From Candidatus Aerophobota bacterium (GTDB lineage: Bacteria > Aerophobota > Aerophobia > Aerophobales > B3-G15), in contig JAGGZA010000044.1 of the NCBI GenBank assembly GCA_021162265.1, positions 1-34,024 of the forward strand: DNA of 34,024 nt, written 5' to 3'. Made by a program: the position numbers and the translations under genes. Of the stretch, positions 1,027-29,478 are shown piece after piece. Position 1 is the stretch's first letter; the number at the start of each line of letters is the position of its first letter. Below the pieces are notes generated by a model, which ran no database searches, was not told where the DNA came from, and was given only the letters and a program-made list of their open reading frames with translations.

Positions 1027-2439
1027 TTAGAAGTCAGGAGAGAGAACTTCTCTACTGTTTTTTCTATAAAGGGATAGGTCTATTTTGTACTGTCTTGTCT
1101 TCTGATAAATAAAAGACCTGGTAACTTTAGCCATCCTGGCTGCAGCTGTAACATTTCCTCTACATCTTATGAGCAGATCCTCTATGTATTTTTTTTCAAA
1201 TGAGTTTAAAAAGACTCTTTTTGCCTCCTCAAATGAAGAAAAAGAATCTTTCGCAAAACAGCCCCTGGAAGGCAATATCTTCCTGACCTCTCCCAGGGTA
1301 ATCAAGGATTTCCTGGACACAATTATCATCTTTATTACAGTAGACTCCAGCTCTCTTATATTGCCGGGCCAGGGATAATTAATAAGAAAATCATAAACCT
1401 CCTGCGATACCCCTTTGATGCTTTTGTTAAAATATCGACTGTGTTTTTTTAAGAAATGATTTACAAAAAGAGGAATATCTTCTTTGCGTTCTCTTAAAGG
1501 AGGAAGACTGATAAAAAAGGTATTTATCCTGTAATAAAGGTCTGCAAGGAATCTTCCCTCTCTTACCTCTTTCTCCAGATTTTTATTAGTTGCCACTATA
1601 AGCCTTACATTGCATTTGACGGGAGCAATTCCTCCTACGGGGATAAATTCTTTATTTTCAATTATCCGTAAGAGTTTAGCCTGAGTATTGGTACTGGTCT
1701 GTGCTATTTCATCCAGAAGCAAAGTTCCACCCTCAGCTGCGGAGAAAAGACCTATCTTCTTGGTATCAGCTCCAGTAAAAGCTCCCCTTTCGTAACCAAA
1801 AAGTTCGCTTTCCATTATAGATTCGCATAGAGCAGCACAGTTTAACCTCAGAAATGGCTCTTTCTGGCGCCTGCTTAATCCATGAATAATAGAAGCAATC
1901 ATTTCCTTTCCTGTACCGCTTTCACCTTTAATGAGTACAGTAAGATCTGTAGGAGCAATCTCTTTAAGAAGATTAAATATCTCTCTCATCCTGGGATTTT
2001 CCCCGAGTATAAAATCAGAGGGTAAAGTAAAACCCGAAGAATAATCCTTTTCAAAGCTTTCTCTCCTGTTATCCCTTAAGGCTTTTCTGATAAGAATCTT
2101 CAGCTCATCAATAACAAAAGGTTTTTTAATATAATCATAAGCCCCTTCTTTTATAAACATCAAGTTTTTCTCAACCTCGCCAGGGTCCTTTGAGGAAAAG
2201 ACTATAACAGGTACAGAAGGATATATCTTCTTGATTTTTCTAAAAAGATCACGACTTCCCATATCAACTTTTTCAAGATTGAAAAGAATAAGAGAAGGAA
2301 AGAGCTTTTTTCTTAAAGTCTCAATTATCACGGGTACTTTTTTAACTTTGAGCCCTTCCTCCTCTAAGGAATGATTTAACTTTGAGGAATCATCTTCGGG
2401 AAAGTTAACTAACAAAACTATCCGGCTTTCCTGCATCAA
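1027..2439 (-). CDS. sigma54-dependent enhancer-binding protein (degenerate REC - AAA+ - Fis HTH), NtrC/FleQ family
   Basis: Walker A GESGTGKE, ESELFGYERGAFTGA, Walker B LLLDEI, WPGNIREL, C-terminal GNVTAAARMAKVTRSFIY. Confidence 0.93.
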   Translation of the reverse strand: MMQESRIVLLVNFPEDDSSKLNHSLEEEGLKVKKVPVIIETLRKKLFPSLILFNLEKVDMGSRDLFRKIKKIYPSVPVIVFSSKDPGEVEKNLMFIKEGAYDYIKKPFVIDELKILIRKALRDNRRESFEKDYSSGFTLPSDFILGENPRMREIFNLLKEIAPTDLTVLIKGESGTGKEMIASIIHGLSRRQKEPFLRLNCAALCESIMESELFGYERGAFTGADTKKIGLFSAAEGGTLLLDEIAQTSTNTQAKLLRIIENKEFIPVGGIAPVKCNVRLIVATNKNLEKEVREGRFLADLYYRINTFFISLPPLRERKEDIPLFVNHFLKKHSRYFNKSIKGVSQEVYDFLINYPWPGNIRELESTVIKMIIVSRKSLITLGEVRKILPSRGCFAKDSFSSFEEAKRVFLNSFEKKYIEDLLIRCRGNVTAAARMAKVTRSFIYQKTRQYKIDLSLYRKNSREVLSPDF

Positions 2440-5528: not shown

Positions 5529-6545
5529 TCAAAGGATTCTTTCTCTTCTTAAAAGCTCTTTTAACTTTTCCTCCTCAAGAGGTTTTGCCTTCTTAGAAAA
5601 TAACCCTTCAAAATTAAATTTTGACAAATTGTCAACAAATTGCTTCCTTTCTTTAAATCCAGAGAAAATCTGTGGTAAAATAACCACCATGTCTTCCATT
5701 TCATAGGCACATTCTACCTCGCTCTCTGTTAAAAGATCCTCGTATAATTTTTCTCCGGCTCTTTTTCCGACTATTCTTATCTTCACTTCCCCGCTGTTAT
5801 AACCATCCTCCTTAACTTTCTCAATTATCGCCTTTGCTAAATTACCAAGGCGTATAAGAGGGGCCTTGAATACAAATATCTCTCCTCCCTGAGCCATACT
5901 ACCAGCCTTAAGGATAAGATTTGCTACCTTAGATTTACCTATCATAAATCTCATCATGTCAGGGTCTGTAACTTTTACCACACCAGTTGACCTTATCTGC
6001 TCTTTAAAAAGGGGAACAACTGACCCTCTTGAATTTAACACATTACCAAACCTAACACAGGAAAATGCTGTTTTTTTGTGAAGATTAGCAACTAAGGTAA
6101 GTCTTTCGGATATCAATTTTGTAGCTCCCATAACACTTTCAGGATTTGCTGCCTTGTTGGTACTCACAGTAATAAACTTTTCTATTTTCTCATTTATCGC
6201 ACTTTCTATTAGATTTTGCGTACCAATAATGTTTGTTTTTACCGCTTCAAAGGGGCTTAATTCGCACAAAGGAACATGTTTTAAAGCAGCAGTGTGAAAC
6301 ACGAAATCAACACCCCTTACTGCTTTATTAATTCTTTCTCCATCCCTTATATCCCCGAAGAATATCTGAATCCTGGATGATGCCATTTTTTCCTTTAATT
6401 CAAAAAGGGCCGTCTCGTTGTTATCAAGAGCTCTAACAAAATGCACTCCGCACCGTAGAAGTTCTCTTACAATTTCACTACCAATCGACCCTGCAGCACC
6501 TGTCACCAGAACATTCCTTCCTGCATAGTATTCCTTCAAGTCCAT
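5529..6545 (-). CDS. NDP-sugar 4,6-dehydratase-like SDR (CapD/Polysacc_synt_2 family), atypical active site
   Basis: VTGAAGSIG, HTAALKHVP, STNKA, MGATK, VRFGNVLNSRGSV, RAGEKLYE. Confidence 0.88.
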   Translation of the reverse strand: MDLKEYYAGRNVLVTGAAGSIGSEIVRELLRCGVHFVRALDNNETALFELKEKMASSRIQIFFGDIRDGERINKAVRGVDFVFHTAALKHVPLCELSPFEAVKTNIIGTQNLIESAINEKIEKFITVSTNKAANPESVMGATKLISERLTLVANLHKKTAFSCVRFGNVLNSRGSVVPLFKEQIRSTGVVKVTDPDMMRFMIGKSKVANLILKAGSMAQGGEIFVFKAPLIRLGNLAKAIIEKVKEDGYNSGEVKIRIVGKRAGEKLYEDLLTESEVECAYEMEDMVVILPQIFSGFKERKQFVDNLSKFNFEGLFSKKAKPLEEEKLKELLRRERIL

Positions 6546-6548
6546 TCT

Positions 6549-7691
6549 TTATCCCCTTACAAAAAACCTTTTAATTCCCTCAACTATCCTGATCACTTCT
6601 TCCCGAGCAATCTGAGGATAAAAAGGAAGTGTTAAAATCTCATTTGAAACCGTCTCTGTAACAGGAAGACTGCATCTGTACCCAAGTTTTTCTCTATAAA
6701 AGTATGTTAGGTGGACAGGTTTAAAGTAAATCTTTGTCATAATCTTTTCTTTTGAAAGATACTCCATTAATTTGTCTCTTTTTCCTTCCTTGACTCTCAC
6801 AGAAAAAAGTTGATAGACACAAAAGTAATCCTCCGGTGGCAGGATGGTCTCCACTCTGTCTACCTCTTTTAATTTTTTTAAGAAAAATTCTGCCATCTTT
6901 CTTCTCTTATTTATAATATCTCCAACCTTTTTAATCTGAGAGATACCCAGAGAGGCAACTATTTCTGACATTCTAAAGTTATACCCAAGGTCAATATACT
7001 CAGGGGACTTATTAGAAGAAAAATAATTTTCATCTTCACGCCTTCCATGTGATCTTAACAGGAGAAATTTGTTATAAATTTCCCTTGAGTTAGTTACCGC
7101 ACACCCTCCTTCTCCTGTTGTTATAATCTTATTCTGACAGAAGCTAAATACTCCTGCATCTCCAAAAGTCCCTACTTTTCTCCCTCTGATTTCTGCGCCA
7201 AAAGCTTCTGCTGCATCCTCAACCATCAAAAGTCCATATTCTTTAGCAATCTCTCTTAGCTCTTCCACCTTGCAGGGAATACCCCCATAGTGAACCGCGA
7301 TAATTGCTTTTGTTCTTTTGCTTATATTTCTCTCTACATCTTCTGGATCAAGCCCCAGAGTGTCCTCCTCTATATCTGCAAAAACAGGCTTTGCACCAAC
7401 AAAAAGAGGAGCATTACAGGTTGAAACAAATGTAAATGAAGGTACTATCACCTCATCTCCCCTTCCTATATCATAAGCCAGTAGTACTGCATGCAGAGCT
7501 GATGTTCCTGAATTAAAGCAAACACAGTACTTTGTTCCCACATAATCAGCAATCATAGCCTCAAATTTTTTAACTGCAGGACCAGCTGTCCACATCATAC
7601 CCTTCCTTATAACATCACTTACTGCTTCAATATCTTCCTTATCCCAGTAAATTTTAAAAAGGGGAATATCCCAATTCATCGCTTTTCTCAT
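6549..7691 (-). CDS. DegT/DnrJ/EryC1/StrS PLP sugar aminotransferase (LegC/PseC-like)
   Basis: NSGTSALH, EDAAEAFG, SFCQNKIITTGEGG (PLP Lys), GYNFRMSE. Confidence 0.92.
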   Translation of the reverse strand: MRKAMNWDIPLFKIYWDKEDIEAVSDVIRKGMMWTAGPAVKKFEAMIADYVGTKYCVCFNSGTSALHAVLLAYDIGRGDEVIVPSFTFVSTCNAPLFVGAKPVFADIEEDTLGLDPEDVERNISKRTKAIIAVHYGGIPCKVEELREIAKEYGLLMVEDAAEAFGAEIRGRKVGTFGDAGVFSFCQNKIITTGEGGCAVTNSREIYNKFLLLRSHGRREDENYFSSNKSPEYIDLGYNFRMSEIVASLGISQIKKVGDIINKRRKMAEFFLKKLKEVDRVETILPPEDYFCVYQLFSVRVKEGKRDKLMEYLSKEKIMTKIYFKPVHLTYFYREKLGYRCSLPVTETVSNEILTLPFYPQIAREEVIRIVEGIKRFFVRG

Positions 7692-8674
7692 GAACTAATA
7701 CCTCTCAAAAAATTTTTTATGTCCTCTCCTCTAACATAAATATCCTCAAAATATCGGGTTACATATAGTTCTTCGTCTTTTTCCTGTTTAAAGGAAACAT
7801 TAATTTTTTCTCCTGCGAGCATTCTCACAGCGAGACTGTGAAAGTTAGGTCCAGTTGAACTCGAAAAAGACATCGTCCCTGATATCCGGGGATTCACCTC
7901 TGTTAGCTTGGGAACGCCATTCTTGTCCTCTTTTGCCTGAAAGAAAAAAGGACCACAGAATTTAATACTTTCAGAAACTTTCAGGGCAATACACTCCAGA
8001 GCTTCACTTTTGACAATCTTCCCTTTTACCGATATCCCTGCCCTGGTCTCCATACGTTCTCTTGAGATATGAAAGAGGAGACTACCCTTTCTGTCAGCAA
8101 AGCAATCAACTGTATATTCTCTTCCCTCAAGGTACTCCTGAATTATAGGGTTAGAAACCCTCCTGTAGAAAAAATCAAGCTCCTCCTTGTTTGAAACTTT
8201 ATAAACATCTCTTGAGCCTGAGCCATCTCTTGGCTTTATTATAAGGGGAAAACCTATGTCAATATCCTCTTTTTTGAGAAAGGAGAGGGGCAGGGAAACA
8301 ACTTCTCTCAATTTCAAATAGGTCTTCCACTTATCTCTTGTGATGCTTATCGTTTCAGGAGAGGAAACAAGAACCCTCACGCCTATTTTCTCGAACTCTT
8401 CTTTTTTAATGGAAAAATCATATAGAATAGTGTCAAGTGCAGGCAAAATCACATTTATTTTTTCCTTGCGGCAGATTTCTTTTAATGTGGGGAAAAATAA
8501 ATCATCACTAAAAGGTGGTACAAGATATCCCTGATGAGAAAGATAAAGTCCTGGAGCAAGCCTGTCCCTATCTGCAGAAATTATCTTTATCTTTTTGTCC
8601 TTTTTCAAGCTTTTTATAGCTGCAACTGCCATACCAGAGCCTGCAGGAACAATCAATACCTTATATTTTTTCAT
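7688..8674 (-). CDS. ATP-grasp ligase (carbamoyl-phosphate-synthase-like)
   Basis: DKWKTY, LIIKPRDGSGSRDV, IIQEYLEGREYTVD, EVNPRISG. Confidence 0.88.
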   Translation of the reverse strand: MKKYKVLIVPAGSGMAVAAIKSLKKDKKIKIISADRDRLAPGLYLSHQGYLVPPFSDDLFFPTLKEICRKEKINVILPALDTILYDFSIKKEEFEKIGVRVLVSSPETISITRDKWKTYLKLREVVSLPLSFLKKEDIDIGFPLIIKPRDGSGSRDVYKVSNKEELDFFYRRVSNPIIQEYLEGREYTVDCFADRKGSLLFHISRERMETRAGISVKGKIVKSEALECIALKVSESIKFCGPFFFQAKEDKNGVPKLTEVNPRISGTMSFSSSTGPNFHSLAVRMLAGEKINVSFKQEKDEELYVTRYFEDIYVRGEDIKNFLRGISS

Positions 8675-9357
8675 TAATTTCCCTGTCCTAAAATTTTTAT
8701 AATCTCCTCAAGTTCCAGAAGGGAAAAGATTGTATAATTTGCCTCATAAGGAGGAGAGACTCTCAAATTCTTATACTCGCCCTTTTTCCTTTTTATTCTA
8801 ACTGTAATTACACCCAGCTTTTTTGCAGCGAAGAAATCCTTCAGGGGATTATCTCCCACGTAAATGGTATTTTCTGTTTTCACCCTTAGTAGAGAAAGAG
8901 TCCTCTTAAAGGAATCCTCATTTTTCTTAGATAAACCTTTCTCAATATCATTTATGGTGATAACTTCAAAAAAGTCTCTTATGCCCAGCGCAGAAATTTT
9001 ATTCCTCTGCGTAGCAGGATAACCATCTGTTATAAGACCGAGTTTTAACCCACAGGATCTCAAGTTTTTCAGAATCACCTTTGCATCAGGATAAAGTGAA
9101 ATTAAAGGTAAATGCTCTCTGTAGATTTTTATAAGATTTTCCACAGGTTCTTTTATACTTAACTTTTTGAGCAAGACATCAAAGTTTTTTCTTCTTAATC
9201 CTCCATCAAAGTCATCTCTTAAAATTTTAAATACTCTATCAGAATTTATCTTGTATTTTCTGGAAAGATACTCTGCGGTTTTTCTAAAACCACTTACTAT
9301 AAACTTTTTTTCCTCGTATAAGGTATCGTCCAGATCAAAAAGAACCGCTTTTATCAT
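8674..9357 (-). CDS. HAD-superfamily hydrolase (phosphatase)
   Basis: FDLDDTLY, LITDG, YVGDNPLKDF. Confidence 0.9.
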   Translation of the reverse strand: MIKAVLFDLDDTLYEEKKFIVSGFRKTAEYLSRKYKINSDRVFKILRDDFDGGLRRKNFDVLLKKLSIKEPVENLIKIYREHLPLISLYPDAKVILKNLRSCGLKLGLITDGYPATQRNKISALGIRDFFEVITINDIEKGLSKKNEDSFKRTLSLLRVKTENTIYVGDNPLKDFFAAKKLGVITVRIKRKKGEYKNLRVSPPYEANYTIFSLLELEEIIKILGQGN

Positions 9358-10508
9358 TTTATTAAAAAATTATCCTCCAGCATTCTCATAATACGCCCTG
9401 AAGTATCCCCGTCTCCGTAAGGATTCACACAGGAGTTTGCTCTTTCAATAAACTCCTCGTCAAACACCGCTCTTTTAATAGCTTCAATAATCTCTTCTTT
9501 TTTGCACCTGACATCAATCACATTCATAGCTCTCTCTCTACCCTTCTGCCTTTCGCCAATATTAACTACAGGCAAACCAAACGAAGCAGCTTCAATTAAT
9601 CCAGCACTGGAATTACCAACCATAACACTGGCTAAATTCATCAGTCCCAGATATAATTTATAAGGAATGTGACGGTGAATTTGAACAAAAGGAAATTTCG
9701 CATACTTTCTGATAACCTTTATAATTCTTCTTCCTCCCGCATCTGCATTAGGATAGGTAATTATAACCTGAGCTCTTTCAGGACCAATTACTTCCTCACA
9801 AAAGCCAACTACACTTTCACAGATAGTTTCCATATTATCTTCCGATTCCTCAATTTTCTCTGTCACGGGATGGTACGAAACCAAAATTAAAGGACTGGAA
9901 ATTCTAATACCAAGTTTTTGAGCAACATCCCCGGGTTCTGAAAAGTCTTTCTTCCTGATGGCCTCAAGATCAGGTGCTCCCACAATATAGGTCTTTAAAG
10001 GATCAGCACCTATGGAAATTACTCGCTCAAAACATCTTTTGCTGGCAACAAAATGAAAATCAGAAAAAACGGTAATAGCATCACGTATATAGTCATCTAT
10101 AGAACCTGATAAATACCCCCCACCAATATGAGCTATGGGAATATTCAGATGCCTGCAAGCTATAGCACCTGCCAGCATTTCACCTCTATCTCCAAGAAGA
10201 AGTGTTAAATCTGGAGCAATTTTTTCTATAGATTGTGTAATCCCAACAATCCCAATTCCAAACGACTTTGCCATTGCGCTCCCTTCATCACCACACAGAA
10301 GCATGTCCACTCTTTCATCCACGTGGAATTTTTCTTCTACTTCCTTAATTGTATATCCGAACTCAGGAGTTAAATGCATAGAAGTTGCTATAATGTGCAG
10401 TTTAAAATAGGGATGGTCCTTGATGGCTTTAAGTATATAATATGCTCTACCAAAATCAGCTCTGGAACCAGTAATATATAATATCTTCTTTATCGCAGAT
10501 TTCCTCAT
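9354..10508 (-). CDS. neuC: hydrolysing UDP-GlcNAc/NDP-bacillosamine 2-epimerase (NeuC/LegG-like)
   Basis: ITGSRADFG, MHL, LGDRGEMLA, YHPVT, YPNADAG, GNSSAGLIEA, NIGERQKGRE, NPYGDG. Confidence 0.88.
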   Translation of the reverse strand: MRKSAIKKILYITGSRADFGRAYYILKAIKDHPYFKLHIIATSMHLTPEFGYTIKEVEEKFHVDERVDMLLCGDEGSAMAKSFGIGIVGITQSIEKIAPDLTLLLGDRGEMLAGAIACRHLNIPIAHIGGGYLSGSIDDYIRDAITVFSDFHFVASKRCFERVISIGADPLKTYIVGAPDLEAIRKKDFSEPGDVAQKLGIRISSPLILVSYHPVTEKIEESEDNMETICESVVGFCEEVIGPERAQVIITYPNADAGGRRIIKVIRKYAKFPFVQIHRHIPYKLYLGLMNLASVMVGNSSAGLIEAASFGLPVVNIGERQKGRERAMNVIDVRCKKEEIIEAIKRAVFDEEFIERANSCVNPYGDGDTSGRIMRMLEDNFLIK

Positions 10509-11554
10509 TCTATTTTTTCAGTCAAAACCAGCTCATCTTTCTCTATATCCTGCTTAGCCTTTCTGCCAACGATAAAACCAATGTACCTGGGCTCAATTCC
10601 TGTTCCCGGTCTTTTAATAGCTAACATATCTCCTCTAATAACAGCCCCTCGAGGAATATAACTTTTTGCCACTATACTTTTTCTTACAAGTTTTTTAATC
10701 TCCTCTTCTTTTATTGTTGGTCTTTTTATCCCATCTCCCAGAGCTTTTTCCGTTTCTCTTATAAAATCTATCATCCTTTTAAGTTCCCCGGGTTCAAGAG
10801 AAGCCCTGTGGTCAGGTCCTGGTAGATTTCTGTCTAAGGTAAAGTGCTTTTCAACAACGCATGCTCCAAGGGAAAAGGCAACAGCAGGAATAACAAGACT
10901 TAGCGTATGGTCCGAAAAACCAACGGGAAAACCAAATGCATATCTTAAAGTTCGCAATACATTTAAATTAGCCTCTTCTGGGTATGCCGGGTAATCTGTT
11001 ACGCAGTGAAGAATAACAATATCCTCAACTCCCTCATTTTTGATGATATTAACAGCCTCCTCCACTTCTCCAAGCTTTGCCATTCCTGTGGATAAAATGA
11101 TTGGCTTTTTCTTCTTCGCTATGTGTCTTAAGAAAGGAAGATTTGTTATCTCGCCGGATGGAATTTTAAAAGCTGGAACATCCAGCTCATAGAGCATGTC
11201 AACACTTTCCATATCAAAAGGGGAGGATAAGAATACAATATTCTTCTCTCCTGCATAATCCGAAAGTTCCTTAAAGTCTTCTTTTTTTAGTTCCAGTTTT
11301 TTTATCATTTCATATTGAGATTCCTCGTAATCTCCATCACTTTTCTGATAACCTGCCTTTTTAGCATTCTTTGTTAAAACATTTTCAGCTTTAAAAGTCT
11401 GGAATTTAACTGCATCTGCACCTGCATCTTTAGCAACATCGATCATTTTTTTAGCCAGATCAAGACTTCCATTATGATTTACACCTGCTTCTGCTATAAT
11501 AAAGCAGGATTTTGTCTCTCCAATTAACCTGGTACCTATTTTAACTTCTCTCAT
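10505..11554 (-). CDS. neuB: nonulosonic acid synthase with C-terminal SAF domain (NeuB/LegI-like)
   Basis: FIIAEAGVNHNG, AVKFQTF, KIPSGEITN, GFSDHT, EKHFTLDRNLPGPDH, KRPGTGI. Confidence 0.93.
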   Translation of the reverse strand: MREVKIGTRLIGETKSCFIIAEAGVNHNGSLDLAKKMIDVAKDAGADAVKFQTFKAENVLTKNAKKAGYQKSDGDYEESQYEMIKKLELKKEDFKELSDYAGEKNIVFLSSPFDMESVDMLYELDVPAFKIPSGEITNLPFLRHIAKKKKPIILSTGMAKLGEVEEAVNIIKNEGVEDIVILHCVTDYPAYPEEANLNVLRTLRYAFGFPVGFSDHTLSLVIPAVAFSLGACVVEKHFTLDRNLPGPDHRASLEPGELKRMIDFIRETEKALGDGIKRPTIKEEEIKKLVRKSIVAKSYIPRGAVIRGDMLAIKRPGTGIEPRYIGFIVGRKAKQDIEKDELVLTEKIE

Positions 11555-12248
11555 CTTTACTACTCCTTACCAAAGCCTCTGCAAAGATAAAGTCAAGTTT
11601 ATCATCTATATCAATACTCTCTTCTAACCTCATAAGATAGGGTAATGTTATGCTATTGTAATAATTTAAGCCATCTTTCAACTTATCTGGAGTATAAATA
11701 AATATTGCTCCATTTAAAAGATACGTTTTTGGCAAATCCTGTCTTCTCTTTTCTGGATAATAATGTTCCAAAACGGGTTTTAGATGATCCTCCTCAATAG
11801 TAAAACACCAATAAGGAGGCTTCTTGGTCTCGCAAACACTTACAACAAAATCGCATCTTCTTGTGAGAAACAGTCTTATCGCCTCATCTATATGATGAGC
11901 TTTACGAAAAGGAGAGGTAGGTTGCAGAAGAACTATTATATCTGGCTCATAATTTTCTTTTTCAAGCTTGCTTAAAGCGTCCAAAACAACATAAGATGTA
12001 GGAATGTCATCACCTGCAAGTTCTCTTGACCTTTCTATTACCTTCGCACCGTACCTCTTCGCAAGCCTGCCTATTACTGCGCTATCTGTAGAAACCACAA
12101 CCTTGTTTAAAAAACGCGACTTTAGAGCTTCACTAATGGTATAGAATATCAAAGGTTTACCATTTAAAAATCTTACATTTTTTCTCGGAACACCCTTTGA
12201 ACCACCTCGAGCAGGAATAATACCTAAAATATTCTTGACCATTCTCAT
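11541..12248 (-). CDS. neuA: CMP-nonulosonic acid synthetase (NeuA/LegF/PseF-like)
   Basis: IIPARGGSKGVPRKN, LLQPTSPFR, RRQDLP, NGAIFI, SIDIDD. Confidence 0.93.
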   Translation of the reverse strand: MRMVKNILGIIPARGGSKGVPRKNVRFLNGKPLIFYTISEALKSRFLNKVVVSTDSAVIGRLAKRYGAKVIERSRELAGDDIPTSYVVLDALSKLEKENYEPDIIVLLQPTSPFRKAHHIDEAIRLFLTRRCDFVVSVCETKKPPYWCFTIEEDHLKPVLEHYYPEKRRQDLPKTYLLNGAIFIYTPDKLKDGLNYYNSITLPYLMRLEESIDIDDKLDFIFAEALVRSSKDERS

Positions 12249-13513
12249 AAAAGGTTCTCCTTTCTTAAAAGATCTTTTATCTGCTTCTTGCTTAAAAAAC
12301 TTCCCTTCTCGGAAGTATAGTGGTTGTTTCCGGTTGAAATATAAGTATCAGGATATGAGTATTTCCCGTTCCCGGATCTGAAAGGAGGAAGAATAATGTA
12401 CATATCCTTCCCTTCAAGCGATCTTCTCTCTTCATCCCCTGTCATCAACTCCTCGTAAAATTTCTCACCAGGTTTTGTTCCAATTTCCTTAATTCCATTA
12501 TTGAAACCCAGGATATCCTCTATTGTCTCCACAAGATCAACAATTCTGACAGCAGGCATCTTGGGAACAAAAACTTCACCTCCCTTAGCCAGAAAACTTG
12601 CTTTAAAGATAAAATCCACAGCTTCATTTAAAGACATCACAAACCTCGTCATCTTCTTACTTGTGAGAGTAACCTGCTTTCCTTCTAAAAGCTGATTCTT
12701 AAACAGAGGAATAACAGATCCTCTTGAACCTAAAACATTGCCAAATCTTACAGTGGCAAATACTGTTCTTCTTTTCCCCTTGTAATAATTTGCTGCAGTA
12801 AAAAGTTTTTCAGCCATAAGTTTTGTGGCTCCCATAGTACTTGTAGGATTTACTGCTTTATCAGTTGATGTAAAGATAACCTTTTCTGCATCTACCTTTA
12901 AAGCAGCATTTATTACATTCTGAGAACCATAAACATTGGTATTAATTGCCTCAAAGGGATTATACTCGCATGAGGTAACATGTTTTAAGGCTGCAAGATG
13001 GAAGACAATATCAACTTCCTCCATAGCCATTTCCAGTCTCTTTGCATCCCTTACATCTCCAATAAAAAATCTTAAATTACCTGCATTATCAAATTCTTCA
13101 GCCATTTCAAATTGCTTTGTCTCATCTCTACTGTAAATCCGAACTACCAGGGGATTCAAACAAAGAAGTCTTCTCGTAAGTTCTCTTCCCACTGTTCCTG
13201 TCCCACCTGTAATTAATATCCTTTTCCCCTGGAAATAATTTCCCTCCCCGGGAAAACTTTTATCCTTTTTTAATTTATTACCATTACCTCCAAGAATTTT
13301 TTTTGCTCCCTTTATAGTATAACCTTTCTCCTTCACAAGTTCCTTTATCTTTAAAAGTATCTTTAAGTCATCCTCTCTGTATCTTCTGTGCATGCCTTTG
13401 CTTCTATAGGGATTGAGAAAATCACCAAACTCCTTTTCCCAGTATCTAAGGGTATAGGGCTTCACTCCTATTCTTCGACATAGTTCTCCTATGCTGATAA
13501 AACCACTATTCAT
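12245..13513 (-). CDS. MerR-type HTH fused to UDP-GlcNAc 4,6-dehydratase (Polysacc_synt_2)
   Basis: N-terminal ISIGELCRRIGVKPYTLRYWEKEF...RRYREDDL...GYTIKGAK, then ITGGTGTVG, HLAALKHV, STDKAVNP, MGATK, RFGNVLGSRGSV. Start moved to ATG 13513 (GGGAG RBS) because the track's 13582 start lies upstream of the sigma28 promoter; ATG 13534 is an alternative. Confidence 0.88.
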   Translation of the reverse strand: MNSGFISIGELCRRIGVKPYTLRYWEKEFGDFLNPYRSKGMHRRYREDDLKILLKIKELVKEKGYTIKGAKKILGGNGNKLKKDKSFPGEGNYFQGKRILITGGTGTVGRELTRRLLCLNPLVVRIYSRDETKQFEMAEEFDNAGNLRFFIGDVRDAKRLEMAMEEVDIVFHLAALKHVTSCEYNPFEAINTNVYGSQNVINAALKVDAEKVIFTSTDKAVNPTSTMGATKLMAEKLFTAANYYKGKRRTVFATVRFGNVLGSRGSVIPLFKNQLLEGKQVTLTSKKMTRFVMSLNEAVDFIFKASFLAKGGEVFVPKMPAVRIVDLVETIEDILGFNNGIKEIGTKPGEKFYEELMTGDEERRSLEGKDMYIILPPFRSGNGKYSYPDTYISTGNNHYTSEKGSFLSKKQIKDLLRKENLL

Positions 13514-13541
13514 TGAATTCTCCCGAGAGCTCATTATTTTT

Positions 13542-13568
13542 TTATCGGCAAAACAATAAATTACTTTA
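13542..13568 (-). promoter_or_regulatory. sigma28 promoter of the glycosylation operon
   Basis: Minus strand TAAA-N15-GCCGATAA. Confidence 0.85.
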
Positions 13569-13626
13569 ACTTTATAATGCAAAATTTATACCGGATTATT
13601 CTATCCTGATTTTCTTCAGGAAATAC

Positions 13627-13655
13627 TTGATAACCTGACATGCTTTTGGTATAAT
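13627..13655 (+). promoter_or_regulatory. sigma70-type promoter
   Basis: TTGATA-N17-TATAAT with extended -10 TG; GGAG RBS before ATG 13683. Confidence 0.75.
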
Positions 13656-13682
13656 ACAGAAAAGAAAAATACGGAGAAAGAT

Positions 13683-14045
13683 ATGGGAGTTTATGAAAAT
13701 GTAAAAAAAGCCTTACAGGACATTGTGGCACCAGAATTACAATCCTTACGGGGAGAGATTAAAAGGCTTGATGAGAAGATAGATTCGTTGAGAGAGATTG
13801 AGATTAAAAGGCTTGATGAGAAGATAGATTCGTTGAGAGAGATTGAGATTAAAAGGCTTGATGAGAAGATAGATTCTCAGTCAAGGGGAATTAATGACAG
13901 GATAAATTCTCTGCGAAATGAAATTTTATCAGAGATAAAAAGATTGGATGGAAAGATAGACTCACTTGATTCTCATTTACGGATAGCAATTGATATTCGT
14001 GAAAGACTGGCTAAAGTTGAGGCAAAATTTGCCGGCAGTTCTTAA
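13683..14045 (+). CDS. coiled-coil repeat protein of unknown function
   Basis: Repeated EIKRLDEKIDS units; own promoter and RBS. Confidence 0.8.
   Translation: MGVYENVKKALQDIVAPELQSLRGEIKRLDEKIDSLREIEIKRLDEKIDSLREIEIKRLDEKIDSQSRGINDRINSLRNEILSEIKRLDGKIDSLDSHLRIAIDIRERLAKVEAKFAGSS
13755..13876 (+). repeat. perfect 45-bp tandem repeat, about 2.7 copies
   Basis: Unit GAGATTAAAAGGCTTGATGAGAAGATAGATTCGTTGAGAGAGATT starts at 13755, 13800 and 13845 (partial). Confidence 0.95.
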
Positions 14046-14080
14046 TAAATCTTAATGAATTCTTTGGTGTCTCAGGTAAA

Positions 14081-14110
14081 AAGAGTTTTGCTTTAAAATA
14101 GCAAACTCTT
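14081..14110. terminator. hairpin between convergent genes, likely terminator
   Basis: AAGAGTTTTGCT-TTAAAAT-AGCAAACTCTT (one bulge); A-run on the left gives a U-tail on the minus strand. Confidence 0.6.
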
Positions 14111-14163: not shown

Positions 14164-16104
14164 TTATGAATAAAGTTTACACAGGGCTGCAAAGGAAAGT
14201 TCGAAGTTATTAATTAATTTTTCGGTCCCCTTTTTTACTCCATCGTAAAATATTCCAACCTTCTCTACCTGATTAAACAATTTCTTTCTTTTGGAAAGTT
14301 TATCCAGCCTCAGGTTTGCTTTTCTCTGTGCAAGGTAAAGATGAGAATACATTTCATCCTCGAGAAAGGAGCGGATATAAGATTCTACCTTCATAATTTT
14401 TTCTTCCAGTTGATTAGACTCTCTTGCCAGATTTTTCAATTCTTGATGATTTGAATATCTTTGTCTGAGCTCTCTTTGCAGTCTTCTTATTACCTTTTGC
14501 CCTTCACCTGCATAAAAATTAATTTCTTTCAATCTCCTTATAACCTTTTCCATCTCTTCCTTTAATTCCTCTAAATTAACTTTTTCTCTAATTCTGGACG
14601 CCTCTTCCAGAATTTCTCTCACTTCAAATTCTTCCTGGCAGTACTTATCAATTACCTCCCTCAAAGTCATTATCTCAGTTCCTTCTATTTTAGCTCCTCC
14701 TTCTGTAGCATCTATACATTTTGCCTTTGTCAGACTAATTATTCTCTCAAAATAAACAAGATAAGAGTACATATCCATAGTTGTTGGGATGTCTCTCCCA
14801 TAAATATCCTTGACCATCACTAAATCCCTGCCAATCCACTTTCCATCGTTACTTCTTATAAGAAGGTACTTTCTACCTGTTCTTTTATCTATACCAATGG
14901 CTATCCTTTTCCGGGGAAGAGCTCCTTCTGCATGAGTAAACCCACCCGGATAACAGAGATCCTGTCCTGTAAGAATAATAGGGTCTGCTCCTAAAGCTCT
15001 TGCAAGAGAAAAAGCAGTATGAGCTACACTTGCTCCTTTCTCTAAAAAACCTTTATCTTCTACGAAGTTATTTAACCATCTGGCAATGGGTTTATGAATG
15101 TTAATAATAAATTTCTTACCTTTAAAATCAGACAGAACATCTGGATAGACCTCAGGATCTGCAGCAAGAAAAAGGTTTTCTGTTCTCTCCATAACCCCAT
15201 CAAAAAGATTTCTAACTCCTACTCCATAATCAATACTAACCACTATATGAGGTTCTATCTGATGCTCAAGTAGCGTTCTTAAAGCAGCATCAACACAGAT
15301 AATTAAGGCTTTATTCTCTACTTCTTTGAGAAGATGAACATTTTTATTTAAAGAGGGACCGGCGGCAACGCAGATAGCAGGTTTATTTTTAAACTTTCCA
15401 AAAAGATTCTTTATTCCCGGATTACTTATAACCTGAGGGATATTGGTAAGTATATTTCTCTGGAAAGTTCCACCTTTTGCAATGTTTGTTGTTAAATTTG
15501 TCCTTGACCAAAATATAGTATCATGAATTGATTTTTTTACCTCATCACCTCTTTTATCCAGGAGATTAAAAGAAGGATTATGAAAAACTATAGAGGTCTT
15601 CCCGGTTAAAAAAGTTTCTCCCACAGGAAGCAATTTTCCCTTTATATTTAAAGGGCTATCTTCCACTATTAACTTCACCCTGGGAGAAGAAAACAGAGGA
15701 GAAAGGTCCAGAAGGCTAAGAGCAAGTTTAAAGAAAGATGGTTGTGGTTCTATCACTATTACTAATTTAATCCAGGGATAGTTATCGATAATTTCTTTCA
15801 CATGATACCCCAGACCAAATCCCACAACTATCAGAAAAAGAGTATCTTCCAGGTCATAACCTCTAATAAAGTTCTTAGCCTCTCTAAAAGGATCGTAGGC
15901 ACTGTGCAAAAGAACCTGCTGACCGCTACCCTTTTTTACTCTGAGAGTGGGAACACCTGCCTTTGTCTTAATAATCTCTACATTTTTGGGGAAAGGAATC
16001 CCATCCAGCTTCTTAACAAGCTCCAGATTACCTTTTTCTTTTAGCAGGGAAATATTTTTAAAATAAAACCCATTTTTTTCTGATGGTAAAAAACTTTTAT
16101 CCAT
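14164..16104 (-). CDS. maf: motility-associated factor (Maf) flagellin glycosyltransferase, MAF_flag10/DUF115
   Basis: LHSAYDPFREA, GFGLGYH, AAGPSLNKN, SVAH...LGADPIILTGQDL, IDATEGGAKIEG; lies between fliS and the neu genes. Confidence 0.88.
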   Translation of the reverse strand: MDKSFLPSEKNGFYFKNISLLKEKGNLELVKKLDGIPFPKNVEIIKTKAGVPTLRVKKGSGQQVLLHSAYDPFREAKNFIRGYDLEDTLFLIVVGFGLGYHVKEIIDNYPWIKLVIVIEPQPSFFKLALSLLDLSPLFSSPRVKLIVEDSPLNIKGKLLPVGETFLTGKTSIVFHNPSFNLLDKRGDEVKKSIHDTIFWSRTNLTTNIAKGGTFQRNILTNIPQVISNPGIKNLFGKFKNKPAICVAAGPSLNKNVHLLKEVENKALIICVDAALRTLLEHQIEPHIVVSIDYGVGVRNLFDGVMERTENLFLAADPEVYPDVLSDFKGKKFIINIHKPIARWLNNFVEDKGFLEKGASVAHTAFSLARALGADPIILTGQDLCYPGGFTHAEGALPRKRIAIGIDKRTGRKYLLIRSNDGKWIGRDLVMVKDIYGRDIPTTMDMYSYLVYFERIISLTKAKCIDATEGGAKIEGTEIMTLREVIDKYCQEEFEVREILEEASRIREKVNLEELKEEMEKVIRRLKEINFYAGEGQKVIRRLQRELRQRYSNHQELKNLARESNQLEEKIMKVESYIRSFLEDEMYSHLYLAQRKANLRLDKLSKRKKLFNQVEKVGIFYDGVKKGTEKLINNFELSFAALCKLYS

Positions 16105-17127: not shown

Positions 17128-20100
17128 TCATCGTCTCTGCTGCCCCGCAGCAAGACCGGTAAGGACGGATATCTGTTGAGATAGCCATCCACCCTGAGCC
17201 TGCATCATTCCAAGATACTGTTCCATCTGGGTGAACTCTCTCCAGAGTGCCTCCCTTTTCATATCAAGAAGGTTCTGTTGAGCATCAATTCTGTCCTGAT
17301 AGTCTTCATTTTGAGAAAGAAGACCATCCTCTATACTTGCAATAAGACCTGTGGTAGCATCTGTAATATAATCCAGGTAGTTCCTTAATCTACCACCTAT
17401 ACCTGATGCCTGGTATGCTTCAAACTCAACAACTCTGGACCACTTACCGTCATTTGAATCATTTATCTTGAGCCTTATTGCCTGAGTTGAAATTGATGGA
17501 AGATAGTGAGTTATGGTACCATCTGTATTTCCTGTAACGGTGGTATAGGTTTGCCAGTCATTGTCATCATCTGGATCACCACCCTGTGTAAGATATTGAA
17601 GCTCATAGTCCTTTATACCATAAGAAGAAGCAGGATAGGTAGTAGAATTAAGGGTATATATTATAACCTTCTTAATTGTCCTGATACTATCAAAGGTAAG
17701 AGTAAGATAATCAGGAAAATCAGATTGAGTTCCATCATTCCATCCCCCACCAGGACTTCCCCAGTTATCAGAGGATGTGTCTCCGTTGTTAACACTTTCC
17801 ACATTGTAATTAGTTGAATAAGTTGAGGATGCGCTTGCAGTTGTCCCAAAGGAAGATAAAGCTACATTTTGCGAGAGAGAGAAAAGGTCCTTCACTCCAT
17901 CAAGATTATTATTTAAAATGTCAGTCAATTCAGACTCATTAACATTGAGATGACCGGTAGTATCAGCTGTTATTCCAATCTCAAATATAGAATTCAAAGA
18001 AGCTGCACCTTCTACCGGATCAGTAAACTGTTTTACAAGCTCGTTGCGGATAGAGGTTAAATTTATATTCCCAAAAAGTGGCCCTCCTTCCTGTTTGGTA
18101 TCAGCATCATAACTTTGTTGAGTATTTATAGCATCCATAAGATCATTGTAAGCATCTATCAGGTTAATAATTGACTGTTTGATTCCTTCTACATCAGCCT
18201 CTACTCTGATATAAACATCCTGGTCAGGACAGGTGCTTAGAAGGTTAAGAGTTACTCCTGGAATAGCCTGATCCAGCTGGTTGGAATTATCTGTAATAAG
18301 AACAGAATTACCTCCTCCTTCTCCCAAAACCACCACCGCGTCTTGGGGGGTTACAGTGGTTGTAAACTCAAGGGTATCTCCACCAGAAAAATCAGGGTCA
18401 ATAATCACTCTCCCTTTTTCTCCGCCCAATTTACTGGTAATAACAAGCCTGTAAGGATTAACTCCAGTACCATCATTGATTATACTCGCATAAACTTCTG
18501 CATCGGAGTTATTTATAGCATCTCTTATACCTTCAAGCGTGGTATCTTCTGAATTAAGACTTACAGTAATCTCAAAACTACCGTCAATAACATTACTGGT
18601 CGTGCTTTGAAGAATATTAAGGTCCCTTGCTGTAGTTCCTCCAACTTCTTCTACTTTTAAAGGACTCTGGCTCTGACCCGTATTGTCGGTAATTAATATT
18701 CCGTTTCCCTGAGAGTTAATACTTGCTGTTACATCAATCCCGGATGCTGAGTTAATAGCATCTATCACATCTCCTATTGTCTCAGCATCTGAAAGATCAA
18801 CTTCAGCACTCTCTCCCGAACGATCGGTGATTCTAATTCTACCAGAATCTACTCCTTCACCTCCATTTAAAGTTTCAAGCCTTGTGCATCTGGCGATATA
18901 CTGGGGGTTAAGATCGTCGCCCTCAAGGGTATCTGAAGCAACGCTCTTTAATATTCCCAAATCTGAGGCAGCCAGGCTTCCATTAAGAGAGGTTACAACA
19001 AGATTACCCGTCCCACCAGATGTATCTGTTAGGAGTATCCCGTTGCCTTCCCTGTCATAAGAAGCATTAATAGCTGTATTTCCTGTTGCATCATTTATAA
19101 GATTTATAACCTCCTGGAGAGTTTGAGCACTGCTTATATCCACATTAAAACTTACGCCATCTCTCTGGGTTATCTGAAAATCATCCCCTGATACACAGCT
19201 GACTCCACTACCTCCGTTTAGGGTCCTGAGAAGAACAGTATTAAGATAGGGTATCACCCTATCACCCACCTTATCTCCTGCAACACCACCTGACCCTGTA
19301 TAGATGCCAAGGTCCTGGGCTGTTGTTCCTCCATTTACCTCATCAACTATAAGGTTTTGGGTTGGAGTAGCATTTAAATCATGTATAGTGATACCCCCTC
19401 CATCAGAGTTAATTTGGACTTCAACATTTGTATTGGGTCCTGCCTCAATCAAATCTTTCACATCCTGTAAGGTAGTAGCAGATGAAAGGTCTATAACATC
19501 CGTATTCCCTGCACGATCTGTTATTTGAATGGAACCCTCATCCACACCTGTTCCATCATTTAAAAGGTCAAGTCGAGTACTCCAGGTAATATAGTTTATA
19601 TCACTGCCATGAATTACACTGCTTGCAACACCACCTGACCCTGTATAGATGCCAAGGTCCTGGGCTGTTGTTCCTCCATTTACCTCATCAACTATGAAGT
19701 TTCCTGTTCCGCCTGATGTATCGGTAAGTTTTATTGCATCACCCACATTATAACCTGAATCATAGTCAATCTCTGCACTCACAGAGATAGTGGAATTATT
19801 ATTTATAGCATCAATAACATCCTGAATGGTTAAAGCACCAGTTAAATCAATTGTTGCAGAATTTCCACTTCTATCAGTTATCTTTATAGAACCTCCCTTG
19901 ATCCCGTTTTGTCCATTTATGAAAGCAAGAGGAGTCTTTTTATCAACCCACCCTCCGCCTATCTCTATTTTTATACTATCACCTGCTGATGCTACGGTGC
20001 TCTGGCTATCATGGAAGCCACGAGAGACAAGCTGATGAGTCTGACTTAAACTGTAAACTCTCAGAGGATAAACTCCTACCTGGGCAGCTCCTGTGACATT

Positions 20101-20361
20101 TGTACTGATAACATCCTCATCGCTGGAAGAAGCGCTTTTTGCCTGAAAGGTAGAAGGCTGAGATAAAATGGTAGCATAGTTTTGCATTGTTAAAAGTCTT
20201 GCATTAATGGAACCCCAGGCTGTCAATTCGGTGTTATTCTCATCTATCTTTTGCTGAAGAGAATCAATGTAAGCTCTATCTCTGGAAAGGAGAGCATCTA
20301 TAACCTGGTCCCAGCTTATGCTGGAAACAAGTCCTGTAACATATTGAGTAGGTTCGGCCAT
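17128..20361 (-). CDS. fliD: flagellar filament cap FliD, 1077 aa, with four internal repeats and an inserted discoidin-like domain
   Basis: FliD_N (VTGLVSSISWDQVIDALL), SNQLDQAIPGVTLNL, LIDAYNDL, C-terminal LWREFTQMEQYL; located between fliC and fliS. Confidence 0.9.
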   Translation of the reverse strand: MAEPTQYVTGLVSSISWDQVIDALLSRDRAYIDSLQQKIDENNTELTAWGSINARLLTMQNYATILSQPSTFQAKSASSSDEDVISTNVTGAAQVGVYPLRVYSLSQTHQLVSRGFHDSQSTVASAGDSIKIEIGGGWVDKKTPLAFINGQNGIKGGSIKITDRSGNSATIDLTGALTIQDVIDAINNNSTISVSAEIDYDSGYNVGDAIKLTDTSGGTGNFIVDEVNGGTTAQDLGIYTGSGGVASSVIHGSDINYITWSTRLDLLNDGTGVDEGSIQITDRAGNTDVIDLSSATTLQDVKDLIEAGPNTNVEVQINSDGGGITIHDLNATPTQNLIVDEVNGGTTAQDLGIYTGSGGVAGDKVGDRVIPYLNTVLLRTLNGGSGVSCVSGDDFQITQRDGVSFNVDISSAQTLQEVINLINDATGNTAINASYDREGNGILLTDTSGGTGNLVVTSLNGSLAASDLGILKSVASDTLEGDDLNPQYIARCTRLETLNGGEGVDSGRIRITDRSGESAEVDLSDAETIGDVIDAINSASGIDVTASINSQGNGILITDNTGQSQSPLKVEEVGGTTARDLNILQSTTSNVIDGSFEITVSLNSEDTTLEGIRDAINNSDAEVYASIINDGTGVNPYRLVITSKLGGEKGRVIIDPDFSGGDTLEFTTTVTPQDAVVVLGEGGGNSVLITDNSNQLDQAIPGVTLNLLSTCPDQDVYIRVEADVEGIKQSIINLIDAYNDLMDAINTQQSYDADTKQEGGPLFGNINLTSIRNELVKQFTDPVEGAASLNSIFEIGITADTTGHLNVNESELTDILNNNLDGVKDLFSLSQNVALSSFGTTASASSTYSTNYNVESVNNGDTSSDNWGSPGGGWNDGTQSDFPDYLTLTFDSIRTIKKVIIYTLNSTTYPASSYGIKDYELQYLTQGGDPDDDNDWQTYTTVTGNTDGTITHYLPSISTQAIRLKINDSNDGKWSRVVEFEAYQASGIGGRLRNYLDYITDATTGLIASIEDGLLSQNEDYQDRIDAQQNLLDMKREALWREFTQMEQYLGMMQAQGGWLSQQISVLTGLAAGQQRR
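19279..19695. repeat. 72-bp perfect direct repeat within fliD (19279-19350 and 19624-19695)
   Basis: Both copies encode IVDEVNGGTTAQDLGIYTGSGGVA with identical DNA; offset 345 bp. Confidence 0.93.
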
Positions 20362-29462: not shown

Positions 29463-29478
29463 TGCAAAACATGTGCCA
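29463..29478 (-). promoter_or_regulatory. sigma54 promoter of the flgF operon
   Basis: Minus strand TGGCACATGTTTTGCA, near-perfect TGGCAC-N5-TTGCA. Confidence 0.9.

Follow-up and report, generated by a model that had tools for sequence, protein, structure and literature searches.

The present analysis concerns one gene in a 34,024-nucleotide (nt) stretch of DNA from a Candidatus Aerophobota bacterium (positions 1 to 34,024 of contig JAGGZA010000044.1, assembly GCA_021162265.1; this whole stretch is called the window below). Its product joins an N-terminal MerR-type winged helix-turn-helix to a UDP-N-acetylglucosamine (UDP-GlcNAc) dehydratase of the extended short-chain dehydrogenase/reductase (SDR) type. 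As judged by comparison of genomes, this fusion is real, old and rare, and it has been kept through the divergence of five families. Operon genes and promoters support the placing of the gene at the head of a nonulosonate operon that belongs to the flagellar regulon. We consider the chances slightly better than even that this is a two-function protein, in which an active dehydratase would be fused to a regulator of its own operon.

In the list of open reading frames (ORFs), the minus-strand frame counted from its first TTG spans 12245..13582. Translation most likely begins at the ATG at 13513, since a GGGAG ribosome-binding site precedes it by 6 nt, the eight orthologues all have their start there, with M-[NDGK]-x-[GEN]-F, and the sigma28 −10 box falls within the longer TTG-started frame. 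The N-terminal domain scored 69.8 bits with Pfam MerR_1 (cut-off 21.6) and 37.2 bits with Pfam MerR (cut-off 28.2), and its elements are helices a1 (residues 8–15) and a2 (19–28), the wing (35–45), and helices a3 (47–62) and a4 (67–81). The linker that follows varies in both sequence and length among the fused proteins, and the Polysacc_synt_2 (PF02719) match behind it covers residues 99–374 and 291 of the 293 profile positions (E 1.4e-100). The description in an earlier note on this DNA, which had read an intact MerR helix-turn-helix, a linker and a complete dehydratase with TDK and MGATK motifs in one frame, was thus confirmed by Pfam, the orthologues and assembled contigs. A small hairpin rich in GC (TTTCCC-GGGGA-GGGAAA), with a T-rich run behind it, was seen in the linker-coding DNA at 13239–13255; it is probably due to chance, because terminator-like sites in the hairpin region are no more frequent than in shuffled sequences (6 against 6.2) and the linker is unconserved.

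A full-length orthologue without an internal stop was found in eight of the 31 species genomes of the phylum, which all lie within one order, and the eight come from five families. When protein clusters were searched with the fusion protein, the first 22 (68–100% identity), among the best 120 of 7,997 scored, carried MerR Pfam domains; the other 98 of these 120 had none, the scores falling with the next matches to about 400 bits and these being unfused proteins of about 340 amino acids (aa). This distribution agrees with the statement of the earlier note that dehydratases of such families normally lack a DNA-binding domain. Contigs of four runs from four studies, the best source among which may be the source sample, were compared over 12100–14100, and no indel was present within 12245–13513; one 949-nt contig covers 12836–13784 with two mismatches, and the single indel seen, a T behind 13536, lies in the leader. 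The mean pairwise identity of 19 fused proteins is 72% in the MerR part (77% in the helix-turn-helix and 79% in the wing), 79% in the enzyme and 26% in the linker. T21-L-R-Y-W-E26 and R37-S-x-G-x-H-R-R44 are invariant in all 19 proteins, as are GxxGxxG, T217-D218-K219 and M227-x3-K231, and by this comparison both domains are under purifying selection.

Beyond this lineage, a word-indexed search with residues 1–92 against proteins of 232–739 aa returned the same family only (16 matches). A representative search with the MerR part gave no fused representative among the best 150; at 50% clustering, unfused enzymes probably stand for the fused clusters. The GTDB-wide scan yielded at least six fused loci, every listed one of this lineage, and at least 74 stand-alone ones (at least 80 loci in all). 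Six loci with a tblastn match extending beyond residue 95 were considered as further fusions and proved to be stand-alone proteins. No MerR family was present in any nearby cluster of the ESM Atlas, and the literature search found no paper on a MerR and dehydratase fusion or on its MerR clade. The NCBI name of the fused orthologues is “SDR family NAD(P)-dependent oxidoreductase”, with nothing on MerR, and the ESM Atlas entry of the fusion protein begins at residue 41, its gene call being placed inside the helix-turn-helix; the architecture is therefore easily missed in databases. In a record labelled Methyloversatilis (L092, 3928–6237, plus strand), a similar MerR domain stands at the C-terminal end (residues 693–760) of a 769-aa frame; this could be a further fusion or an ORF extended too far.

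The AlphaFold2 model used here was built from a 144-row alignment, the 19 fused sequences alone having given a predicted local distance difference test (pLDDT) score of 56. The pLDDT is 93–97 in the MerR part, which has the topology a1-a2-wing-a3-a4, below 50 in the linker (residues 78–90) and above 90 in the enzyme part, so the model suggests two confident domains joined by a low-confidence linker. Both this topology and the Pfam scores correspond to a MerR winged helix. Other hallmarks of the MerR family are missing from the protein and its promoter: the domain ends at about residues 74–81 and passes into the unconserved linker in place of a coiled coil; no classical effector region for metals, drugs or redox signals was matched in Pfam or NCBIfam, the remainder of the chain being the SDR enzyme; and, in place of a sigma70 dyad operator with a 19–20-bp spacer, the gene has sigma54 and sigma28 elements, the latter with a normal 15–16-nt spacer.

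As to the enzyme part, the Polysacc_synt_2 match is accompanied by GxxGxxG and by the TDK acid/base pair. PseB was the first NCBIfam match (346.9 bits, below the equivalog cut-off of 407.75) and FnlA the second. Comparison with solved enzymes gave 318 bits for Pen (6bwc), 275 for FlaA1 (2gn4), 241 for CapE, 233 for WbjB and 142 for PglF. In Foldseek, the TM score normalised by target length was 0.93 for Pen and 0.91 and 0.85–0.89 for other solved dehydratases, and no solved chain aligned beyond about 340 columns of the 422-aa model, which is the enzyme part. PDB entry 6BWC is, according to the available text of PMC8987622, the D128N/K129A variant of Pen. The [ST]DK...Yx3K signature (Table 1 of that paper) is present in the fusion protein in its TDK part, and the Tyr is replaced by Met227, so that M227-G-A-T-K231 follows the Mx3K pattern of PglF and WbpM; in the alignment the Tyr of PseB and Pen is a Met in CapE, WbjB and PglF as well, and the nearest unfused relatives likewise have the Met. 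Close kinship with PglF and WbpM is not indicated, since PglF scored far below Pen, FlaA1 and CapE, and a MerR domain occupies the place of the membrane region of PglF/WbpM-type enzymes. The available text of PMC8987622 gives TDK...Mx3K as the signature of active PglF/WbpM enzymes. The enzyme domain looks active and needed, because the cofactor and catalytic motifs are invariant and enzymes with TDK...Mx3K are known to be active.

The earlier note had placed the gene first behind a sigma28 promoter, and a perfect TAAA-N15-GCCGATAA match was indeed found there. In the 1.42-Mb genome (82% complete), the pattern TAAA-N14-17-GCCGATA occurs at eight sites, four of them inside the window, upstream of a CheY-like gene, the flagellin gene, the fusion and an HDOD gene. 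Seven of the eight orthologues are preceded by TAAA-N13-17-[GC]CCGA[TA]A, and the remaining one, G025, has GTCGATAA instead of GCCGATAA. The sigma54-type element reads TGGTATA[AG]ATTTTGC in the seven relatives and begins with CGG in the window. When the regions upstream of all eight genes were aligned, a conserved block was obtained, consisting of the sigma54 element, a 9-nt gap and TTAAAG-N15/16-G[CT]CGATAA. The genome carries a FliA gene (262 bits, above the cut-off) and encodes an RpoN DNA-binding domain; sigma54-like elements also occur upstream of flgF at 29478 and elsewhere. The whole conserved block was tried as an operator and rejected, the sigma54 and sigma28 elements explaining nearly all invariant positions.

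Flagellin-family matches were found in ten of the 31 genomes, one of them merely FlgL-like, and the fusion occurs in seven of the nine genomes with a true flagellin and in one of the 22 others (G030, 72% complete). It was not found in the flagellin-bearing genomes G020 (57% complete) and G018 (92% complete). This co-occurrence is given as a pattern, with no statistical test, because the genomes are related to each other.

Behind the fusion, the operon continues with a CMP-sugar cytidylyltransferase, a NeuB-type synthase, a NeuC-type hydrolysing 2-epimerase, a haloacid dehalogenase-like (HAD) protein, an ATP-grasp protein, a DegT aminotransferase and a second Polysacc_synt_2 protein, which has Asn where the catalytic Asp is expected. 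The Maf-type transferase gene upstream on the same strand likely encodes the user of the operon product, as judged from its family matches. It is also a neighbour of the fusion in G021 and G027, and a contig-end fragment of it, left out by the family scan, lies upstream in G022. Several well-studied bacteria require nonulosonate glycosylation of flagellin to assemble the filament. In all seven relatives, the gene next to the fusion encodes an SDR protein of about 310–325 aa with a shared N-terminal sequence, of which the G021 copy, the sole one searched, proved to be strongly homologous to Pal (6bwl, 364 bits). To judge by the ORF translations, an aminotransferase resembling PseC comes after it in seven of seven. 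In six of the seven relatives, the full-length fusion protein, and with it the dehydratase, has no match (E ≤ 1e-20) other than the fusion itself; with the Pal- and PseC-like genes behind it, the fusion is the pathway dehydratase there. The term “first enzyme” of flagellin glycan synthesis, used by the earlier note, is thus reasonable for the seven relatives, where Pal- and PseC-like genes follow, and less certain in the window, because of the second dehydratase paralogue and the NeuC/NeuB-type gene set. In content, the window operon, with NeuC, NeuB, ATP-grasp, HAD and DegT, is unlike that of the seven relatives, in which the same promoter and fusion are followed by a Pal/PseC-type operon.

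The origin of the MerR domain can be approached through its stand-alone relatives, which the representative search supported as short proteins lacking an effector domain, in line with the earlier note. Most of the best 150 are 76–230 aa long, with about 45–55% identity. The downstream gene was examined at 57 of the 74 listed stand-alone loci, the other 17 having no qualifying ORF, and encodes a glycosyltransferase in 33 cases, a nucleoside diphosphate (NDP)-sugar enzyme in four, a flagellin in one and other or unassigned products in 19. The 33 glycosyltransferases belong to families GT2 or GT4, mostly with tetratricopeptide (TPR) repeats and some with a methyltransferase; they come mostly from Armatimonadota and also from Fibrobacterota and Calditrichota. 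At two listed loci the order is flagellin-fliW-csrA-MerR, one of which runs on into GT2/TPR. CCGATA[AT] is present on the sense strand within 250 nt upstream at 21 of the 74 listed loci, against 0.038 expected per searched interval, and two Fibrobacterota promoters resemble that of the fusion. Thus, a new point suggested by these comparisons is that the closest stand-alone MerR relatives stand first in operons for glycosyltransferases or sugar modification, and that they often lie behind sigma28-like promoters or flagellin-fliW-csrA. At L044–L046, L054, L055, L059, L060, L087, L094, L096, L106 and others, [GCT]CCGATAA −10 boxes were observed, often with a TAAAG −35, and at the listed Armatimonadota loci with such boxes the MerR gene is followed by GT2/GT4-TPR genes; this suggests a FliA-dependent module of MerR and flagellin-glycosyltransferase genes in Armatimonadota.

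In a tree of 83 MerR domains over 74 columns, the fused domains and seven stand-alone proteins of Calditrichota form one clade (ultrafast bootstrap, UFBoot, 99; approximate likelihood ratio test, SH-aLRT, 100). The genome's own stand-alone paralogue, 48% identical to the fused MerR domain, lies apart from this clade and groups with other HU/IHF-linked proteins (99/100). It was observed in G000:C103 (L002) directly after an HU/IHF-type gene (449–808 and 873–1145, both on the minus strand), and an HU/IHF gene is paired with a MerR gene in Coatesbacteria, Myxococcota and further records as well (L066, L076, L091, L101, L103). The genes of the sister clade head operons for GT4 and a methyltransferase, for FdtA-DegT-GT2, or for acyltransferase-sulfotransferase-DegT. 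When each of these seven loci was searched throughout for AAAGTTnGAGT-N3-ACTCnAACTTT, the highest-scoring site was in every case one upstream of the MerR gene, with scores of 17–20 of 20 that were reached by none of 50 shuffles. Mismatches between the arms are uncompensated, so a protein site fits better than an RNA hairpin, and the palindrome is a candidate operator. The regulatory role that the earlier note had proposed for the MerR part hence gains comparative support from the glycosylation operons headed by its relatives and from this palindrome.

The recognition helix, TLRYWEKEF, is identical in the fused and sister proteins. In the fused promoter of the window, AAAGTTAAAGT agrees with the sister half-site at nine of ten specified positions, as one of two sites with at least 9/10 in the 34-kb window, and the genome's other sigma28 promoters are without the extra AAAGTT.

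The mechanism that would combine these observations is as follows. The C-terminal domain would be an active UDP-GlcNAc 4,6-dehydratase of the PseB/Pen/CapE group, with Met for the usual Tyr, and would start the synthesis of the nonulosonate that Maf transfers to flagellin. The N-terminal domain would be a DNA-binding module from a clade of short, effector-less MerR-like proteins, whose members in other phyla appear as separate genes, placed first in operons for flagellin or surface glycosylation; fusion of the regulator gene to the first gene of the operon that it heads would have taken place in this lineage. Since the MerR domain has no coiled coil, the pairing of DNA-binding domains must come from an oligomeric enzyme domain, so the enzyme oligomer would replace the missing coiled coil and act through the flexible linker. 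The most probable target would be the protein's own tandem sigma54/sigma28 promoter, at AAAGTTAAAGT over the sigma28 −35, and the output of the operon would thereby depend on how much enzyme is present and possibly on its state.

Several observations weigh against this two-function interpretation. The full palindrome is absent from all eight fused promoters, where the best scores are 14–15 of 20, no better than elsewhere in the same loci, and no palindrome of at least 17/20 occurs in the 1.42-Mb genome at its 82% completeness. The half-site-like 11-mer reaches 9/10 in only three of the eight promoters and 7–8/10 in the other five, and its conservation may be that of the promoter alone, because it overlaps the sigma28 −35. 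The palindrome test itself is partly circular, as the pattern was derived from five of the seven scored loci, and the glycosyltransferase-adjacent relatives are not mutually independent, because most are from Armatimonadota. In the window, the Pal partner is missing (no close Pal was found in the genome, the best match being 41% identical and located elsewhere) and a second paralogue is present, which makes the pathway role of the fused enzyme less clear. Finally, G018 has flagellin and Maf, and in place of the fusion an unfused, unrelated SDR gene after Maf; flagellin glycosylation in a close relative can therefore do without the DNA-binding module, and G018 shows that this module can be lost together with a change of pathway.

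Among the other explanations, a ligand-coupled trigger enzyme is a tenable possibility, to be held tentatively. UDP-GlcNAc, NAD(P)(H) or CMP-nonulosonate in the active site would alter DNA binding through a change in conformation or oligomeric state, making the protein a one-component sensor of nucleotide-sugar status. Such coupling would fit an architecture like those of known enzyme-regulators and of CarH/LitR-type MerR proteins, where a C-terminal ligand domain controls oligomerisation, and a MerR domain with no dimerisation helix of its own; but the linker is unconserved and modelled as disordered, and thus gives no sign of a fixed domain-domain interface. Reported feedback inhibition of PseB by CMP-pseudaminic acid, which would favour such coupling, did not turn up in the literature search.

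A broader form of this idea, which we regard as rather doubtful on the present comparisons, is a nucleotide-sugar-sensing transcription factor with a working enzyme as its sensor, belonging to a wider family of FliA-dependent MerR-like regulators. The flexible MerR heads of the oligomer would be set on the AAAGTT-type element, which lies over the sigma28 −35 and follows shortly after the sigma54 −12, and the oligomer would be rearranged by UDP-GlcNAc or by the end product, CMP-nonulosonate. If this were true, the supply of flagellin sugar would feed back on which flagellar sigma factor fires the operon, and the stand-alone relatives would be unrecognised FliA-dependent regulators of flagellin glycosylation in Armatimonadota, Calditrichota, Fibrobacterota and Aerophobota.

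It is unlikely that the MerR domain no longer binds DNA and is kept for contact with a protein (a flagellar or sigma-factor partner), for folding or for solubility. Neither the fused promoters nor the genome yielded a convincing operator, and G018 does without the module, as such a role would allow; but the recognition helix and wing are the best conserved parts of the domain (77–79%), their counterparts in stand-alone relatives with operator-like palindromes are identical or nearly so, and a functionless domain would not stay so conserved across five families. Quite improbable, in turn, is a catalytically dead enzyme serving only as the sensor or oligomerisation scaffold of a MerR-type regulator: the exchange of the catalytic Tyr for Met, the PseB score under the NCBIfam cut-off and the second paralogue in the window, which could do the chemistry, are outweighed by the invariance of GxxGxxG, TDK and Mx3K, by the same Met in the nearest unfused relatives and by the lack of a second homologue at E ≤ 1e-20 in six of seven relatives, and Mx3K dehydratases are active in the available text of PMC8987622. 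The reading of two genes as one through an assembly or gene-calling artefact, suggested by very short MerR-only calls (P0121, on a 753-nt contig and apparently frameshifted; P0271, on a 693-nt contig; P0122, 78 aa) and by the one public gene call starting at residue 41, is for practical purposes refuted by these comparisons, since the short forms are singletons on contigs below 1 kb and the frame is intact in eight species genomes, 22 clusters and contigs of four studies.

Little is understood of how flagellar gene expression and sugar supply are matched, and one protein behind promoters of both flagellar sigma factors makes the question directly accessible to experiment, for which one recombinant protein and some 170 bp of DNA are enough. 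In at least three other phyla, a wider clade of short MerR-like proteins is found at the head of flagellin or surface glycosylation operons, one sub-clade of it offering a clear candidate operator, and the architecture is hidden by the public annotation of the fused proteins.

Table 1 Coordinates of the fusion gene, its domains and motifs, its promoter elements and neighbouring genes in the window, and of the candidate operators in the sister clade
Feature	Position	Strand	Basis or remark
Whole fusion gene	12245..13513	(-)	422 aa + stop; ORF list, Pfam, NCBIfam, orthologues, contigs without indel
MerR-type winged helix-turn-helix	aa 7-74, 13292..13495	(-)	Pfam MerR_1, E 2.1e-19
Inter-domain linker GGNGNKLKKDKSFPGEGN	aa 75-92, 13238..13291	(-)	Gly/Asn/Lys-rich, 18 aa
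Extended-SDR UDP-GlcNAc dehydratase domain	aa 93-422, 12248..13237	(-)	Pfam Polysacc_synt_2
GxxGxxG motif	aa 102-109, 13187-13210	(-)	Dehydratase domain
T217-D218-K219	12857-12865	(-)	Dehydratase domain
M227-G-A-T-K231 (M-x3-K)	12821-12835	(-)	Dehydratase domain
Sigma28 (FliA)-type promoter TAAAG-N14-GCCGATAA	13542..13568	(-)	Perfect TAAA-N15-GCCGATAA; pattern scan
Half-site-like 11-mer AAAGTTAAAGT	13563..13573	(-)	Candidate binding site; overlaps sigma28 −35
Sigma54-type −24/−12 element CGGTATAAATTTTGCA	13578..13593	(-)	Directly upstream of sigma28 element
Rest of operon	5529..12248	(-)	Tightly packed or overlapping genes; ORFs, Pfam, NCBIfam
Second, unfused Polysacc_synt_2 paralogue	5529-6545	(-)	TNK...Mx3K; alignment to Pen; closes operon
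Maf-type flagellin nonulosonate transferase	14164..16104	(-)	Pfam MptE-like + Maf_flag10_N; NCBIfam PseD domain
Sigma54 activator	1027-2439		Pfam
25-bp imperfect palindrome (candidate operator)	L041, L042, L049, L052, L053, L071: −45 to −51 from MerR ATG; L051: −169		

Some further features were observed around the gene. A divergent ORF of 120 aa (13683–14045, plus strand) encodes a coiled-coil protein and contains a perfect 45-nt tandem repeat (13755–13876, 2.7 copies, 100% match); it is preceded by an extended sigma70-like promoter, TTGATA-17-TATAAT, at 13627–13655. The ORF could be placed in no family, and G022 and G030 have comparable ORFs with repeats upstream of the fusion. For 13556–13708, a 407-nt contig of run X1 with a depth of about 1133 matches only 13556–13599 and 13683–13708, with 138 other letters between them, and probably represents an abundant relative that shares the promoter region and has a different intergenic arrangement. 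The FliD cap protein of the window (17128–20361, minus strand) is unusually long at 1077 aa, an F5/8 type C (discoidin) domain being inserted at residues 842–980, and orthologues of similar length are present in G021 and G027.

The two halves of the protein have different known counterparts. PseB/FlaA1, Pen, CapE/WbjB and PglF share with it the fold and motifs of UDP-GlcNAc 4,6- or 5,6-dehydratases, but none of them has a DNA-binding domain. The Pen-Pal pathway of Bacillus thuringiensis, as far as given in the available text of PMC8987622, is similar to the situation in the seven relatives, where a Pal homologue follows the Pen-like dehydratase, and differs from that in the window's genome, in which no close Pal was found. 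GmaR of Listeria monocytogenes is likewise a flagellin-glycosylation enzyme that also controls flagellar transcription, in the available text of PMC9638930; according to the same text, it is a transferase and an anti-repressor that binds the MogR protein and not DNA. It has neither a MerR domain nor a dehydratase, and its layout of glycosyltransferase and TPR resembles the genes behind many of the listed stand-alone relatives.

By sequence, the nearest solved chains to the MerR domain are the N-terminal domain of CarA (2jml), GlnR (7tea/7tec), LitR (3whp) and CarH (5c8d). CarH, LitR and CarA, which are among the best PDB matches of this domain (E 2e-6 to 2e-5), resemble the fusion protein in having an N-terminal MerR-type winged helix without a long coiled coil, so that the C-terminal domain would have to supply oligomerisation. 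They are photoreceptor repressors of the MerR family, whose tetramers are controlled by ligand and light. Their C-terminal domain binds B12, whereas that of the fusion protein is a sugar-nucleotide dehydratase, and no B12-binding family was detected in it with Pfam. GlnR and TnrA of Bacillus (7tea, 7tec, 4r4e; E 9e-6 to 7e-3) are short MerR-type proteins without a classical effector domain, whose binding to DNA is under the control of glutamine synthetase, an enzyme that is a separate protein acting in trans, whereas the fusion protein is one chain. With its enzyme and DNA-binding domain in one chain, as in a trigger enzyme or one-component regulator, the fusion protein resembles in general plan PutA, BirA and NadR, trigger enzymes with a DNA-binding domain of their own, in which a metabolic enzyme regulates its own pathway; those proteins have other DNA-binding folds and other enzymes, and both of their activities are proven, whereas the two activities of the fusion protein are predicted from sequence.

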